A stretch of 50,430 nt of DNA from Chromatiaceae bacterium (GCA_041307765.1 JBFZCW010000139.1:1-50430), one strand, 5' to 3'; counted from the first letter of the stretch, positions 36,781 through 42,790 are shown. Notes: generated from the letters alone by a model not told the origin. Numbers and translations: made by a program.

Positions 36781-37008
36781 GCCCGCCGTGCCAACCCGGC
36801 CGGGGCTCCCTCCTCGCCCTGCCCTCAACCTGCCCAGATTGGACGGAGCCCGCTGGCGCTGGATCGGCCCTCCGACATCGCCTGACCGGCACACTCGCCC
36901 GAATGGCGCCAGGCCCCGGCGCCACGGTACTGGTCGGCCCTGGCTAGCCATGGAAACGCTGTGGCGCGACAATCAAAGCCCGAGCCCCGCGGCAGTGCCA
37001 TCAACGCG

Positions 37009-37971
37009 ATGATGTCCGAACCTCAACCCGATCTTCGCGGCGACCTTGCGCTGCTTCAGGATCGCATCGGCCGCACCCACCTGCGCCAACGACTGGGCCT
37101 GGAGGAGGACCACGAGGTCTTCTCGTTTGGCCGTCGGGGAGCCCACTTCTTCTACCCGGAGAACTGGTATTCGGTTCACGGGTTCATCCGCCATTCGCTG
37201 CGGCTCGCGGGTCTTTACGGGCGCGCCCAGCGCAACGCCCGCACCATCCGCCTCGTCCATAACCCGCTGGTGGTACCAAGGCTCCCCAAGCCGTTCGAAG
37301 GCATGCGCATCCTCCAACTCAGCGATCTGCACACGGACCTGGATCTGCGCATCACCCACGCCATCGCCGAGCGGGTGCGGGAGGCCGAGTACGATCTGTG
37401 CGTGCTGACCGGGGACTACCGCGCCCGTACCTATGGCCCCTTCGAACCGGCCCTGGAGGGGCTGCGGGCCATCCGGTTGCACTTGAAGGACCCCATCTAC
37501 GCCATACTCGGTAATCACGACACCATCCGCCTGGTGCCCGGTATCGAGTCCATAGGCATTCGGGTCTTGCTGAACGAGTCGGTCATGATCGAGCGCGACG
37601 GGGCGGCACTGCACCTGGCCGGGATCGACGATGCCCACTACTACCAGGTCCACAACATTCAACAAGCCGCCGAAGCGATCCCGCACGGGGCCTGCTCCCT
37701 GCTCCTATCCCATACTCCAGAGGTCTACCGCCAGGCTGCCCACGCGGGCTTCGGGGCCATGCTGTGCGGCCATACCCACGGTGGGCAGATCTGTCTGCCC
37801 GGCGGTTACCCCATCACCTGGGACGCCCGGTGCCCCCGCCGCTTGGCCGGAGGGCCCTGGACCTACGCGGGGATGACCGGCTACACGTCCGTGGGCTCCG
37901 GGAGCTCCATCGTCAACGCCCGCCTCAACTGCCTGCCCGAGATCACGGTCCACGAGCTCCGACGCGCCTGA
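37009..37971 (+). CDS. calcineurin-like metallophosphoesterase (YaeI-like)
   Basis: About 320 aa from ATG 37009. Motifs LQLSDLHTD, LTGDY, GNHD, GHTHGGQ. Confidence 0.85.
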   Translation: MMSEPQPDLRGDLALLQDRIGRTHLRQRLGLEEDHEVFSFGRRGAHFFYPENWYSVHGFIRHSLRLAGLYGRAQRNARTIRLVHNPLVVPRLPKPFEGMRILQLSDLHTDLDLRITHAIAERVREAEYDLCVLTGDYRARTYGPFEPALEGLRAIRLHLKDPIYAILGNHDTIRLVPGIESIGIRVLLNESVMIERDGAALHLAGIDDAHYYQVHNIQQAAEAIPHGACSLLLSHTPEVYRQAAHAGFGAMLCGHTHGGQICLPGGYPITWDARCPRRLAGGPWTYAGMTGYTSVGSGSSIVNARLNCLPEITVHELRRA

Positions 37972-38458
37972 ACCGGCCCATCAGGCCAGAGACCCACCGT
38001 CCCGTCTGGGTCAGGACGATGTCGATGACGATGAATGCCAGAATCAGCACCAAAACGTCCGGCCAGCCCAGCGCGAGTTGGGCCTTGACCGCAAGGGCGG
38101 GAAGCAGGGACTCCGGGACCTGGTCCAGAAGCGGCACCGACGCGCTCGGCGGCCGCCCCAATCGGCGTTTGATGAAGCTCGCGGCGAGATCGCCCAGCAT
38201 GGCCCCTGCCGCGACTTCGAGACCCAGAGCCCAGGGCAGCCCCAGGACCAACGCCCCCATGGCGGTTCCGACCAAAGAGGCAACCAGCCCCCGCCAGGTC
38301 TTGGAACTGCCCAGGAGCGGCCTTCCGTCGAGAGACAGGTACCGGCCGCCGTCCAGGGGCCGGGCCGGGCCGAGCAGCAGTCCAAGCAGGGCCGGCAAGG
38401 CATTGGCTAGAACGACCAAGCCAAGCAGAATCGGCATCGAGGACCAACTCAGTGTCAC
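37943..38458 (-). CDS. CarS/DUF46-family integral membrane protein (CDP-archaeol-synthase-like)
   Basis: Motifs PLDGG...GRPLLGSSKTWRG and GDLAASFIKRRLG...PLLDQ match the CarS/DUF46 signature as I recall it. Start uncertain: GTG 38458 (GGAGG 12 nt upstream) or ATG 38437. The track start 38656 overlaps the upstream rhodanese gene. Confidence 0.72.
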   Translation of the reverse strand: MTLSWSSMPILLGLVVLANALPALLGLLLGPARPLDGGRYLSLDGRPLLGSSKTWRGLVASLVGTAMGALVLGLPWALGLEVAAGAMLGDLAASFIKRRLGRPPSASVPLLDQVPESLLPALAVKAQLALGWPDVLVLILAFIVIDIVLTQTGRWVSGLMGRFRRVGARGP

Positions 38459-38484
38459 AGTTGCAGCGACCTCCGTGGCCAGGC

Positions 38485-39291
38485 TCAGGGGCGAGCCGGG
38501 CCCCCGGCGGAGGTGCCGCCGGCCCCCCCCTGCGCACGGACCGTGGTCAGCCCCAGTGACTCCCACGCCTGCATCCCGCCCCGATACCACTTGAGCTTGC
38601 CAGGCGGGTAACCCAGGTCGAGCAGGGCCTTGATATTGGTCGGCGACTGGCCGCACCAGGGCCCGTTACAGAACAAGACCAGGGTCTTGGCCCCGGAGAA
38701 GCTCCAGAGCCCCTCGCGCCGGACGGCACCGAACTCCAGCTCCAGCAGGTCCGCCACCTCCCGCGGCGCGGCGTTGCCGAGGTCGAGCCGAGTGTAGGGG
38801 ACGTTGACGGAGCCGGGGATGGTGCCCTGGGCGGTCCACTCCGGCGTCCGCGAGTCGATCAGCAGGATCCCATCATCGCCGGCGGCCGCCCTGCGCAGAT
38901 AGGCGATGACATCGAGTTCACCGATGGTTTCCACCCCGCCCGGCATGGTCATGGGCTGGATGCAGTAGGGCGGACAGGGGCGTGCCGTCTGGTCGTACGG
39001 CGGGTCCACAGTGTGGCCTGGGTTCTGATGCCGCATCAGGGTGACGGAACCTCCCCGGTGGGGGACCTCCACATAGGGCAGATCCTCGGTGATGCGGACG
39101 CGCAGGTCCTCCAGGTGAAAGACGTCGTCCGCAGTATTCGCGGCCTGTGTCAGACCCGAGGCAAACAGGCACAGGACTGTCGTGGCAACAAGCGCGCGTC
39201 TGGGCTGCACTGGGATCTCCGTTGTTGTTCCTGAGGGGCTGATCGAGCCGCGACTCAAAGACGCCGGCAGCGCTTTGCCGCGATTCGACAT
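38485..39291 (-). CDS. exported rhodanese-domain protein
   Basis: 268 aa. Signal peptide with twin-Arg-like n-region (QPRRALVATTVLCLFASGLTQA). Cys/Pro motif RPCPPYCIQP. C-terminal rhodanese domain with active-site loop CNGPWCGQS. Confidence 0.8.
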   Translation of the reverse strand: MSNRGKALPASLSRGSISPSGTTTEIPVQPRRALVATTVLCLFASGLTQAANTADDVFHLEDLRVRITEDLPYVEVPHRGGSVTLMRHQNPGHTVDPPYDQTARPCPPYCIQPMTMPGGVETIGELDVIAYLRRAAAGDDGILLIDSRTPEWTAQGTIPGSVNVPYTRLDLGNAAPREVADLLELEFGAVRREGLWSFSGAKTLVLFCNGPWCGQSPTNIKALLDLGYPPGKLKWYRGGMQAWESLGLTTVRAQGGAGGTSAGGPARP

Positions 39292-39306
39292 GCCACGCGC
39301 TAGGGA

Positions 39307-40050
39307 TTAACCCCTCTCCTGGACCTCTGCCCAAAGGGCCCGGTAGGCCTGGGCAGCCGGGCACCCCGGGGCATAGACCTGGAGCGGCAGGCGGTGGATG
39401 CCCATAGACTCGACATCCGCGGTGAGCGGGATGGCGGTGCGGAGCATGCCTGGATAACGCGCCGCCACGCGCTCCATGAGTCCGACCTGCAGCGGTAGGC
39501 CCGAGTTCACCATGGAAAAGAACGGCAGGACCTCGATCCCCGAGACCCGCACATGGTCCGCGAGAAAGCCCGTGAGTTGGTCCAGGGTCCGCTCCGAGAG
39601 GGTCGTGGGAACCGTCGGGACCAGGAGCAGGTCTGCAGCGCGGAAGACGTTCTCGGAAAGCAGGGAGATACTGGGCGGACAGTCCAGGAACACCGTGTCA
39701 TAGGCATCCGCCAGGGGCCTCAGCAAGCGCAGCAGCTGCTTGGTCGGGCGCTTGGCGTCTTCCAGCATCAGGTCCATGTTGCGTAGCGAGAAGTCCCCGG
39801 GGAGGAGGTCCAGGCCGTCAAAGTCGGTGGCCTTCACCAGACCGTCGAGGTCGGTGCGGCCATGGGCCAGGGACTTACCGCCGCCCTTCACCTTCGGCTT
39901 GACTCGGAGGTAGAAGGTCGCTGCGGCCTGTGGATCCAGGTCCCAAAGAAGGGTTCGGCTGCCTCCCTCCGCGGCGAGGTAGGCGAGGTTGACTGCAGTC
40001 GCCGTCTTTCCCACCCCGCCCTTGATGCTGTAGACGCCGACGATGTTCAA
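39307..40050 (-). CDS. orphan ParA/MinD-family P-loop ATPase
   Basis: 247 aa. TTG start overlaps the upstream stop (TTGA). Deviant Walker A SIKGGVGKTATAVNLA, Walker A' LLWDLDPQ, Walker B TVFLDCPP. No parB-like gene adjacent. Confidence 0.9.
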   Translation of the reverse strand: MNIVGVYSIKGGVGKTATAVNLAYLAAEGGSRTLLWDLDPQAAATFYLRVKPKVKGGGKSLAHGRTDLDGLVKATDFDGLDLLPGDFSLRNMDLMLEDAKRPTKQLLRLLRPLADAYDTVFLDCPPSISLLSENVFRAADLLLVPTVPTTLSERTLDQLTGFLADHVRVSGIEVLPFFSMVNSGLPLQVGLMERVAARYPGMLRTAIPLTADVESMGIHRLPLQVYAPGCPAAQAYRALWAEVQERG

Positions 40051-41669
40051 GATCCGTGCCCCGGATCCGGCTGCGGATCGGATCCAGGTTCCGCCCCCGG
40101 ATCGGCCCCCCCCGGACCAGCGTGGAAGAGCCCGCGGAAGAGCCCCCTGCCCCGATCGGAGTCGAAACCCCGGAAGGTGTCGGCGAAGGCCTCCCGGGCG
40201 GTCTCCTGACGGCGCAGGAGATCTGCGACCAGTGCGCCCATCGCAAGCAGGGCCGGCGTGCCCGTCAGACCCTGCGCCTGCATGCGCGCAGCCATATCTT
40301 GAAGGTGGCCGGCCTGCACGGCTAGGTCCTGGAAGGTCCCGAGATTGTCGAGCAGGACCTTGAGCAGTTTGATAGCCCCGCCAATGGCCTGCCCAAGGTA
40401 AAGGTTCTGAAAGAATTCCATGAGATAGCGTAGCTTCTTACAGCTCTTGCGCAGCTCGTGCATATCTGCCGGGGGGGACTCGACAGTGATGGCGCGGCCT
40501 TCCTTGCGGACGCGCCGGACCATGCGCCAGACGCGCTCGTCCGCCAGGGCTTTGATCGGGCGATCGGCGTTGGCAGGGGCCATCTCCGCGGGTGTCGGCT
40601 CGGTGAGGACCTGCCGCCAGTGATGCACCAAGTGGTCCATCGTCACAGAGTTCAGCGCCTCGACGAGGAGCCGATGCTCGTCGGCGTAGTGCGACAGGAG
40701 ATAGAACCGCAGGGGCTCCAGGTCCCCCCGCATGGACTGCGGCAGGCTCGCTTGGTAGGCGTCGAAATCGAGCAGATAGACGTCCAGGTCGCGAACCGGC
40801 CCCGTCACCTGCTGGAGCCAGGCGAAGTGGGCCCTGAATTCTGTCTCCACCTGTGGGGGCAAAACCCCGGGCATCTGGGCCAAGGCCGCCCGAGTACGCC
40901 GGGTGGCCACCCGCAGGTCATGGAGAAACTCGCTGTCCAGATTCTCCCTCGCCCCCGGGATGTTGGCCTCGATGGTGTCGAGCAGTCCAAGTAGAATCTG
41001 CCGTAGAGCCTCATCGGCGCGCTCCGCCGGATCGAGCCGATAGGCCAGCTTCGAGGAATAGCCGCCGGGGGGCCGCTCGCCGAGAGTAAGGGCCTCGGCC
41101 AATAGCGGTCGCAACGCGGGCTCAAGCGCGAACCCATGGCTCAACCAATCGGCGACCGCCTGCGCCTCAACCTCATAGCCCTTGAGGGGGTTCACCGAAA
41201 GGCGCGAGGCCAGCCCGCGGCGCGGCTCCTTGCCGGACAGCCGATACTCCTCAATCACCAGACGAACAAGCGTCTTCTCCTCATCGTCCAGCAGGCGCAG
41301 AACCTGGGTCTCGACCTCCATCTCTACCGCTGGGAGCAGCCGGCGTACACCGATGGCGGCCAGGATTCGTCCTTGCACGGGGCCTGGTGCAAGATCCCGG
41401 GCCAGGCCAGGCGCGTCGAAGATCAACTGTTCCAGGGTCGGTTCGCCGCCGGACAGGTCGTGCCACAGGAGCCGCCGCTTGCCGGCCTCCAGGCGCTCCT
41501 CGACGATTGCCCCAGCCAGGTAGGCGCCCCAATCGAAACTGTCGAGCAGCCGGACCGCGGCCAGCCCGGGCGGATCCTCCAGGAGACGCCAACCGCACTG
41601 AGTCAGGGTCGCCACCAACCGTGGCTTACTCCCGGATGGGAGCAAATAGTCCTGGAATCGTTGGTGCAT
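40047..41669 (-). CDS. CHAD-domain protein with unassigned N-terminal domain and disordered Gly/Pro/Asp tail
   Basis: 540 aa; ATG 41669. CHAD hallmarks [33 protein letters not shown] and LGTFQDLAV in residues ~230-500. The N-terminal ~210 aa lack the ExExK motif of CYTH domains. Confidence 0.85.
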
Positions 41670-41824
41670 CGCATCGCCTCAACCTGCAGGGTACGTGGCA
41701 TTATGGCCCCTCCGGGCCCGGCTGTCTGGCGCGTGGGCAGCCATCAACCCGTGCCGCTTCCAAACGGTCACCCGATTCGTCTAAGGTGAAAGCTCGGCTT
41801 CAGACCCATCCAAGGTACCAGACG

Positions 41825-42790
41825 ATGACTAAACTCGATCAGCTCAAGCGGATGACCACAGTGGTTGCGGACACCGGGGACTTCGAGGCCATTGCCCAGT
41901 ACAAGCCCCAGGACGCCACCACCAACCCCTCCTTGCTGTACAAGGCAGCCCAGATGCCCCAGTACCGTGCCCTGGTCGAGGACGCGGCCGTCTTCGGACG
42001 GGCCAAGGGGACAGACTCCCAGAGCCGGGCGCGCTGGACCATGCAACGGCTGGCCGTGAACTTCGGTGCCGAGATCCTCAAGGTGGTCCCTGGGCGGGTG
42101 TCCACCGAGATCGACGCACGCATGTCCTTCGACCCGGACGGGACGCTGCGCCGCGCCGAGGAACTCGTCGAACTCTACGACCAGGCTGGGATCGACTCCG
42201 ACCGGGTCCTGTTCAAGATCGCCTCGACCTGGGAAGGAATTTCCACCGCAGAGCGGTTGGAGCGCCGCGGCATCCACTGCAATCTAACCCTATTGTTTAG
42301 CTTCCCCCAGGCCGTCGCCTGCGCCGACGCCGGCGTCACCCTTATCTCCCCCTTCGTCGGCCGCATCCTCGACTGGTACAAGGAGGCCGAACACGTCTCT
42401 GGCTATCCAGCCGACGAAGACCCGGGGGTGCGCTCCGTCACGCGCATCTTCAATTACTACAAAGCCCACGGTTACGACACCGTGGTCATGGGCGCGAGCT
42501 TCCGCAACGTCGATGAGGTCCTGGAACTGGCGGGAAGCGACTACCTGACCATCTCGCCCCCCCTGCTCGCGGAGTTGGCGGCCAGCGAGGGCGATGTCCC
42601 GCGCAAACTTGACCCGGACAAGGCCAGGGACATGGTGATCGATCGGGTGATTTACGACGAAAAGACCTTCCGCTGGGACCTGAACGAAGACGCCATGGCC
42701 ACCGCCAAGCTCTCCGAGGGTATCCGTTTGTTCACCGCAGACACTCTGAAGCTGGAGCGCTTCACCCACGAGATCTGTCAGAACTGCTGA
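41825..42790 (+). CDS. tal: transaldolase
   Basis: 321 aa from ATG 41825 ([20 protein letters not shown]). Motifs DATTNPSL, catalytic-Lys context [23 protein letters not shown]. The track ORF is over-extended to 41387. Confidence 0.95.

Follow-up and report, generated by a model that had tools for sequence, protein, structure and literature searches.

Positioning of cargos other than DNA by ParA-type ATPases is well established, the known systems being McdAB, ParC, PpfA and PomZ. For polyphosphate (polyP) granules, Henry and Crosson proposed in 2013 that partition might depend on something 'similar to ParA-family proteins', with no candidate proteins named and with the PpfA/TlpT- and ParC-type systems cited as precedent for a ParA-like mechanism (PMC3806658), and the mechanism of polyP localization was still called undefined in 2026 (PMC13556221). 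Here we describe a pair of adjacent genes, encoding a CHAD-domain protein and a ParA-like ATPase, located on a stretch of 50,430 nucleotides (nt) from a Chromatiaceae bacterium (GCA_041307765.1 JBFZCW010000139.1:1-50430), which as a whole is referred to below as the window. The reading best supported for this pair, which we rate at somewhat better than even, is that it positions or partitions polyP granules by a ParA-type mechanism.

Factors that link granules to the nucleoid and thereby serve their spacing or inheritance include PhaM, which acts on the polyhydroxybutyrate (PHB) granules of R. eutropha. AlgP of P. aeruginosa joins storage granules to the nucleoid and influences their spacing or inheritance (PMC9239181). 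AlgP and PhaM are passive DNA-binding linkers without an ATPase, in contrast to the window module with its proposed ATP-driven ParA. CHAD proteins ('phosins') localize to polyP granules (PMC6537752, PMC9239181). A 2024 review of the ParA/MinD family nowhere mentions polyphosphate, and both CHAD and polyP are missing from a 2023 survey of multiple ParA/MinD ATPases. Literature searches combining ParA with polyphosphate, CHAD or phosin returned no description of such a system, as a preliminary description of this DNA had suggested, beyond a gene neighborhood note on Acidithiobacillus; there the order folD-ppk-parA-CHAD was noted in passing in 2024 as conserved, and the ParA was glossed as a plasmid-partition protein only (PMC10892726).

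The central features of the window locus are as follows.

40047..41669, minus strand: TTM-like plus CHAD protein of 540 amino acids (aa), the proposed polyP-granule adaptor
39307..40050, minus strand: orphan ParA/Soj-like ATPase of 247 aa with a TTG start codon and with matches to Pfam AAA_31 and CbiA
40047..40050, minus strand: TTGA, shared by the stop codon of CHAD and the TTG start of ParA (translational coupling), as read from the sequence

As in McdA/McdB, this is a two-gene module composed of a ParA-type ATPase and a cargo-bound adaptor for an inclusion made not of DNA but of protein or polymer, with no centromere, and McdA is among the structural neighbors of the window ParA. However, the adaptor here would be a folded TTM plus CHAD protein whereas McdB is disordered and condensate-forming, the adaptor gene is located upstream and translationally coupled, the proposed cargo is an inorganic polymer granule, and the ATPase is nearer to Soj (E 2e-34) than to McdA (E 2e-13). 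Moreover, the locus has neither a McdB-type partner nor a carboxysome operon around it, the neighbors being tal, rsmA, lon and the genes of a rhodanese and a CarS-like protein. The window ParA resembles the ATPase of ParABS systems in its deviant Walker A motif with the signature lysine, in its switch Asp residues and in its nearest relatives, ParA 8RAY and T. thermophilus Soj; the Soj-aligned Arg, too, is kept by most of the family. It differs from ParABS in that ParB and parS are missing, in that its scores fall under all partition cut-offs, and in that the window copy has no Arg motif. The PpfA/TlpT and ParC chemoreceptor systems likewise employ an orphan ParA that positions a protein cargo by non-specific matrix binding, but with another cargo and another adaptor, and no chemotaxis genes lie near the window pair. 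On the adaptor side, the order TTM-then-CHAD is that of YgiF and the CYTH-CHAD proteins, with Foldseek aligning 471 columns to full-length YgiF (5a60), and the CHAD fold matches that of the phosin PptA (6rn5; phosins have been studied in R. eutropha and Streptomyces). In contrast to these proteins, the TTM domain here has no ExExK motif and remains under the Pfam CYTH threshold, and the linked ParA distinguishes the family; we know of no ParA partner described for YgiF or for the phosins studied. On the basis of comparative genomics and structure prediction, the novelty would thus reside in the class of cargo and in the adaptor architecture, within the known principle of ParA cargo positioning.

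Conservation of the CHAD–ParA pair

Loci were sampled from both sides of the pair. For the ParA side, one genome per species was scanned with the family alignment and the best 80 loci were kept, together with two loci obtained by direct look-up. For the CHAD side, metagenome contigs were scanned with the CHAD-protein alignment. The ParA orthologues form a tight family, with the top 120 search matches spanning 63–100% identity. A homologue of the whole 540-aa protein, comprising both domains, is encoded directly upstream and on the same strand in 66 of the 78 genome loci that include sufficient upstream sequence. In the reciprocal test, 59 of the 77 metagenome loci that could be evaluated have the ParA gene downstream of CHAD and in the same orientation. 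Of 110 pairs, 84 have overlapping stop and start codons (by 4 nt in 67 and by 1 nt in 17). With well over 100 independent loci in which it recurs, the pairing is far above chance; adjacency limited to this strain, which the preliminary description had named as a refutation of its proposal, was not what was found, the arrangement being conserved far beyond the strain and across phyla. Nor did any other computational check that it had named as able to refute the proposal do so.

At least six phyla are represented, including Gamma- and Betaproteobacteria, Chlorobiota, Actinomycetota, Dormiibacterota and Desulfuromonadota. The genome loci with the pair belong to Chromatiales-like and Sedimenticolaceae gammaproteobacteria, Thiodiazotropha symbionts, Methylococcales, Arenicellales, Thiotrichales, Nitrotoga, Acidimicrobiales, Solirubrobacterales, Streptosporangiaceae, a Mycobacterium metagenome-assembled genome (MAG), Dormiibacterota and Trichloromonas. 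All-against-all clustering of 3043 flanking open reading frames (ORFs) revealed broad conservation for the CHAD (142 loci) and ParA (133 loci) genes alone, the next three clusters by size consisting of opposite-strand ORFs, or antisense shadows, that overlap these same two genes. The conserved functional core is a two-gene module of CHAD protein and ParA, since the rhodanese and CarS-like genes are confined to close relatives. A third conserved partner gene was considered and rejected, the largest independent family in the flanking-ORF clustering occurring in 17 of ~160 loci. Among the longer cluster representatives, no CHAD–ParA 'Rosetta-stone' fusion was found.

The ParA gene has no adjoining CHAD gene in ten Methylococcales loci (L024, L027-L029, L032, L033, L038, L039, L049 and L076) and in L065 and L066. 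The neighbors of ParA in the ten Methylococcales loci are assorted (MFS, GGDEF, RTX, dtd, glgP and mgtE). In a distance tree these exceptions form one clade, located beside the Methylococcales that keep the pair; because this clade is derived, the unlinking amounts to a single derived event and the linkage is ancestral. The ParA of the unlinked clade retains all family motifs. In seven Methylococcales loci with CHAD and without ParA (L120, L125, L127, L140, L146, L156 and L163), the CHAD gene adjoins divergent genes for SixA-like and PstS-like proteins.

The TTM–CHAD protein

The AlphaFold2 (AF2) model of the CHAD protein was computed from 44 homologues and is of high confidence, with a predicted local distance difference test score (pLDDT) of 87.6 and a predicted template modeling score (pTM) of 0.80. 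The polypeptide divides into two domains and a tail.

40122..41054, minus strand: CHAD domain, aa 206-516, with invariant polyP-contact residues H250, R253, R257, R293 and K437
41055..41669, minus strand: degenerate triphosphate-tunnel (CYTH/TTM) N-domain, aa 1-205, with D43-x-F45-D46-W47, R109, K132, G164 and Y165
40050..40121, minus strand: acidic Gly/Pro/Asp C-terminal tail, aa 517-540, modeled with low confidence (pLDDT <50 for aa 520-540) and lineage-specific

Pfam CHAD (PF05235) matches aa 225-457 with an E value of 7e-58 and 196.8 bits against a gathering threshold of 25.6, and the family profile matches the CtCHAD structures 3e0s/6qv7 with an E value of 1e-72, which bears out the CHAD identity that the preliminary description had assigned to the C-terminal part. 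Superposition by Foldseek of model residues 206-516 on the Chlorobium tepidum CHAD structures 6qv7, 6qva (the polyP complex) and 3e0s resulted in target-normalized TM-scores of 0.93–0.96. CtCHAD binds polyP in vitro and oligomerizes on it; it was crystallized with polyP, which is contacted by H253, R256, R260, R296, R438 and K441, and H253, R256, R260, R296 and K441 were mutated in that study (PMC6537752). Alignment places the six contacts at H250, R253, R257, R293, K434 and K437 of the window protein, respectively. K434 is moderately conserved, and at least 135 of the 136 sequences in the family have each of the other five. The CtCHAD construct comprises residues 208-522 of UniProt Q8KE09; as part of this longer protein, CtCHAD is the C-terminal portion of a protein of the same architecture and a member of the family. 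By homology, the window CHAD protein would mark the granule through polyP binding.

The N-domain is β-rich over residues 7-205, with pLDDT values mostly >85, and adopts an eight-stranded tunnel fold. Its Foldseek matches include full-length E. coli YgiF (5a60), the S. acidocaldarius TTM (7ns8), class IV adenylate cyclases, thiamine triphosphatase, 2gfg and 3sy3, with stand-alone TTM structures aligning at target-normalized TM-scores of 0.6–0.68. A Pfam search returned no match within aa 1-220 and no CYTH match at E<=0.01, and the ExExK motif is absent from the N-terminal 210 aa. Conserved positions among 136 family members are limited to D43, F45, D46, W47, R109, K132, G164 and Y165. A TTM domain that has lost catalysis is the best interpretation of the N-domain. 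The preliminary description was therefore right about the missing ExExK motif, but the fold, which it had left unassigned, is that of a degenerate TTM/CYTH domain. A search with the N-domain yielded 876 cluster representatives at E<=1e-3; among the 150 best matches listed, most proteins are 500–550 aa long and match at their N-terminus, and the shorter ones are fragment-like. Two rare fusions were seen, one of HhH_5, a non-specific DNA-binding motif, with TTM-like and CHAD domains (P0455) and one of a canonical CYTH domain with TTM-like and CHAD domains (P0462). The former hints, from its domain composition, at a link between granule and DNA.

The tail varies across the family. Counted from aa 516, it is 25 aa long with a net charge of -4 in the window protein, and the family median is 8 aa with a net charge of +1. 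In 71 of 136 CHAD family members the C-terminal tail is short and basic; the window protein is not among them. The disordered Gly/Pro/Asp tail of the preliminary description is thus present in the window protein, but it is peculiar to this lineage and unlikely to be the general adaptor element, and the acidic tail was rejected in that role because it is not conserved across the family.

Association with polyphosphate genes

A near-identical counterpart of the family member of known structure is part of such a locus. The Chlorobaculum CHAD protein P0241 is 98% identical to CtCHAD, and at this locus (L164) ppk1, a 265-aa gene, the CHAD gene (522 aa) and a 247-aa ParA-like gene follow one another on one strand, with 2 nt between CHAD and ParA. 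The Chlorobaculum ParA is 47% identical to the window ParA over its full length, and the family signatures are common to both. A Chlorobium MAG (L165) has the order pstC-pstA-pstB-phoU-x-CHAD-ppk1 with no adjoining ATPase. In both loci an extra gene is located directly upstream of CHAD, between it and either ppk1 or phoU (L164 7183-7980, 265 aa; L165 6866-7972, 368 aa). The two products are 56% identical, have no significant Pfam family, and may represent a further polyP-associated protein of the Chlorobiaceae lineage.

In total, ppk1 adjoins the CHAD gene in nine loci, among them those of a gammaproteobacterium (L052) and of Trichloromonas (L077). PstS-like proteins are encoded nearby in 17 loci, a SixA-like histidine phosphatase in 14, a PhoU-like protein in 7 and PstB in 5, such that ~33 of 164 loci contain at least one phosphate-related neighbor. 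Together with the family membership of CtCHAD, these recurrent ppk1, pst and phoU neighbors make the link to polyP stronger than the preliminary description had proposed.

The ParA-like ATPase

The ATPase motifs are intact. Two segments of the protein are of particular relevance.

40003..40023, minus strand: deviant Walker A K10-GGVGK15-T16 with the signature lysine, read from the sequence and invariant in 130 of 130 family members
39487..39507, minus strand: aa 182-188, N-S-G-L-P-L-Q, in place of the family motif D-R-R-K-x-x-H, from the alignment of 130 members

The preliminary description had already recognized the deviant Walker A motif KGGVGKT, which in the window protein reads S-I-K10-G-G-V-G-K15-T16. 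The invariant residues of the 130 sequences comprise K10 and K15 (signature and catalytic Lys), D37 and D39 (switch Asp) and D123 (Walker B Asp); in the window protein the latter three reside in the motifs W-D37-L-D39-P-Q (Switch I/Walker A') and F-L-D123-C-P-P (Walker B). Additional family signatures are W36, a basic loop R49-x-K-P-K-x-K-G-G-x-K59, and D182-R-R184-K185-x-x-H188. The AF2 model (pTM 0.80) has a Soj/MinD-like fold and its top Foldseek matches are Soj/ParA proteins, with query-normalized TM-scores of 0.75–0.80. The closest solved proteins are ParA 8RAY (E 2e-34 by family profile), T. thermophilus Soj and H. pylori Soj, and McdA, MinD, FleN and BcsQ are more distant from the family than Soj/ParA in both sequence and fold.

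Placement of the ATPase was based on the curated NCBIfam cut-offs and on comparison with PDB structures. The partition models all score far under their cut-offs (ParA_partition 67.3 bits vs 180, RepA 70 vs 348, SopA 43.5 vs 725 and PrgP 45.5 vs 400), as do minD_bact (38 bits vs 212.9) and BcsQ (61 bits vs 157.85). An ordinary partition ParA, an identity that the preliminary description had asked to be checked, is thus not indicated, the protein lying under every ParA, RepA, SopA, MinD and BcsQ cut-off. Databases label members of this family 'cellulose biosynthesis protein BcsQ', 'chromosome partitioning protein' or 'AAA family ATPase'; the first two labels appear to be misannotations, since the scores fall under the BcsQ and ParA_partition cut-offs. 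A MinD-type C-terminal amphipathic helix is missing from the model of the window ParA, in which the final helix of the core (231-246) reaches to the end of the protein at aa 247, and neither minE nor minC is located nearby.

The surroundings of the window ParA provide no partition elements either. No parS match with <=3 mismatches was found in the 50-kb window, no iteron-like repeats or repeat arrays were found in 37800-42000, no ParB or helix-turn-helix (HTH) gene is present in the window cluster, and no parB appears in any locus cluster of the flanking-ORF clustering. The absence of ParB, of an HTH protein and of parS-like repeats, claimed at the outset, is consistent with these searches, and so is the claim that this is not a chromosome-partition context, as the neighbors tal, rsmA, lon, glyA and nrdR are housekeeping genes and the surroundings are neither those of an origin nor those of a plasmid.

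In the family alignment of 130 members, 125 have R184, 120 have K185 and 128 have H188; the window protein has G184. R184 aligns with the arginine of the 'DGRT/DART' segment of T. thermophilus Soj, which we take to be the non-specific DNA-binding residue (R189 in B. subtilis Soj).

Organization of the window locus and clade-specific genes

In the window, the CHAD and ParA genes are the first two of four minus-strand ORFs, followed by genes for an exported rhodanese and a CarS-like membrane protein. The remaining features of the cluster are listed here.

38485..39291, minus strand: exported rhodanese-domain protein of 268 aa (Pfam Rhodanese, E 1e-10), a lineage-specific accessory
37943..38458 (GTG start) or 37943..38437 (ATG start), minus strand: CarS-like integral membrane protein (PF01864; Pfam and NCBIfam matches), a lineage-specific accessory
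41700..41728, minus strand: sigma-70-like promoter candidate CAGACA-17-CATAAT, ~30 nt upstream of the CHAD start, a consensus match only

The intergenic gaps downstream of the ParA gene are 15 nt and then 26–47 nt. The promoter candidate is the sole promoter-like site in 37700-42000, where 0.2 would be expected by chance, and it sits in the 165-nt divergent gap between the CHAD and transaldolase genes. A terminator scan of the cluster revealed no convincing terminator between the four genes. ORF calling and direct reading of the sequence reproduced the four-gene layout, the coordinates, the TTGA overlap and the gaps as first described. One flank carries a convergent metallophosphoesterase gene followed by cytochrome c, glyA, nrdR and ribD, and the other carries the divergent transaldolase gene (tal), rsmA and lon. 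The CarS-like and metallophosphoesterase (36961-37971) genes converge and share 29 nt at their 3' ends (37943-37971), and this convergence is kept in L166-L169. A PADLOC scan for defence systems returned a trivial P-loop match and nothing else.

The N-terminus of the rhodanese resembles a signal peptide (VQPRRALVATTVLCLFASGLTQA/AN). The protein is an atypical, exported rhodanese, with a C-N-G-P-W-C-G-Q-S loop at 38650-38680 (aa ~205-215) and a weak NCBIfam match to a PQQ-catabolism-associated CXXCW family (22.8 bits vs a cut-off of 128). The full four-gene order is present in five loci with ParA proteins at least 77% identical, those of the window and of L166, L167, L168 and L169. Beyond these five loci, the rhodanese gene occurs in the close relatives L088 and L094, which have no CarS-like gene, and the CarS-like gene occurs in L111, which has no rhodanese gene. 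Both were rejected as core members of the module, being found in close relatives only; the preliminary description had placed them in the operon and left it undecided whether they share its function, and they prove to be clade-only additions to the CHAD–ParA pair.

The loss of the ParA D-R-R-K-x-x-H motif extends to close relatives of the window copy (P0002, P0005, P0016, P0017 and L111). Three changes thus coincide in the window clade and nowhere else, namely the lost ParA Arg motif, the long acidic CHAD tail and the addition of rhodanese and CarS-like genes. They suggest that the module works somewhat differently there, and the positioning matrix or the regulation may have changed; because a single clade is concerned, the three are not independent observations.

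Discussion

The positioning function itself is inferred from gene context. In the mechanism that we propose, the TTM–CHAD protein would coat polyP granules through its CHAD domain, and the Soj-like ParA would dimerize on ATP and bind a cellular matrix, which in most family members is probably the nucleoid. Such ATP-dependent matrix binding and turnover are what the motifs and nearest relatives of the ATPase would predict. The granule-bound CHAD protein would recruit ParA and drive its turnover, with the consequence that polyP granules would be spaced along the cell and shared between daughters, as in ParABS and McdAB. Contact with ParA would most likely be made by the dead TTM domain of the CHAD protein or by its C-terminal tail, which is usually basic and short. 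The analysis establishes the domain identities, the intact ATPase motifs, the conserved polyP contacts, the conserved adjacency and overlap, and the recurrence of ppk1, pst and phoU neighbors; that the two proteins interact physically, that ParA binds a matrix and that granule position is affected are things we infer. The proposal of the preliminary description that CHAD serves as the cargo adaptor of ParA is thus supported in part, narrowed to a two-gene core, and with the acidic tail unlikely to be the general adaptor element.

Several observations weigh against this mechanism. Known ParA partners usually begin with a peptide that is basic and disordered (PMC10241942) and that serves to stimulate the ATPase, whereas the N-terminus of the CHAD family extends ~6 residues before the first strand, is of mixed charge and is not consistently basic. 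The CHAD gene occurs without an adjoining ParA gene in some genomes (L165, where it is beside pst/ppk1, and 18 metagenome loci), such that the CHAD protein can work without a linked ATPase. The window ParA has none of R184, K185 and H188, which makes a plain nucleoid-ratchet less certain in the case of the window copy. In S. elongatus no ParA-family protein takes part in positioning polyphosphate granules (PMC13556221), and a passage of the same article cites phosin deletion in other organisms as having little effect on granule formation.

The ATPase might serve granule biogenesis or turnover instead, as an ATP switch that gates CHAD oligomerization on polyP or that recruits or localizes PPK1. 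Regulation or localization of machinery in a comparable manner is known for BcsQ, FlhG and MipZ. The direct adjacency of ppk1 in several lineages including Acidithiobacillus (PMC10892726), the oligomerization of CtCHAD on polyP (PMC6537752), the missing Soj-type DNA-binding Arg of the window ParA, and the lack of a canonical basic N-terminal activator peptide in the CHAD family would all fit such a role. Nonetheless, the ATPase is closest to Soj and ParA, retention of the Soj-aligned Arg in 125 of 130 members points to matrix binding, and ppk1 adjacency is seen in a minority of loci (9 of ~164); we accord a biogenesis role a modest chance. A small chance is left to a function in which the pair tethers polyP to DNA for chromosome compaction or for phosphate or metal homeostasis, with granule spacing as a side effect. 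Here polyP is known to affect nucleoid structure (PMC13556221), P0455 joins a DNA-binding HhH_5 to TTM–CHAD, and PstS-like, PhoU and SixA-like neighbors recur, but this support comes from gene context and the idea overlaps heavily with granule positioning, a ParA-type tether being itself a positioning device.

The remaining explanations fare worse. All four genes could serve together in an envelope process related to sulfur or lipids, to which CHAD and ParA would be accessory; this is in keeping with the four-gene order kept in the five closest loci examined and with the lack of a convincing terminator between the genes. Yet all but eight of the other loci, these eight being close relatives, have no rhodanese or CarS-like gene beside the CHAD–ParA pair, and the two genes vary independently of one another (L088/L094 vs L111), and the rhodanese is exported and the CarS-like protein is in the membrane whereas CHAD and ParA are cytoplasmic, which leaves this explanation improbable. 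An ordinary chromosome or plasmid partition ParA with a coincidental CHAD neighbor is effectively refuted by the comparative data: the nearest solved structures are indeed chromosomal Soj/ParA proteins, but adjacency and overlap are conserved across phyla, no locus cluster contains parB and the window no parS, partition equivalogs score far under cut-off (ParA_partition 67 bits vs 180), and the locus is surrounded by genes of housekeeping function (tal, rsmA, lon, glyA, nrdR).

A widespread and ancient class of ParA partition systems, not described before and dedicated to an inorganic storage polymer, with the dead TTM–CHAD protein acting as its 'ParB' and a Soj-like ATPase as its motor, present in at least six phyla and rewired in the window clade, is a tentative extension to which we give not quite even chances.

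The pair provides the first concrete candidate genes for the positioning or partition of polyP granules, and it offers two genes for experiment in culturable organisms, in a family of which one member has a polyP-bound CHAD crystal structure. If the proposed function is true, an inorganic polymer would join the list of ParA cargos, CHAD proteins would gain a mechanistic role, and a large set of 'orphan' ParA ATPases now mis-annotated as BcsQ or as chromosome-partitioning proteins would acquire a function.

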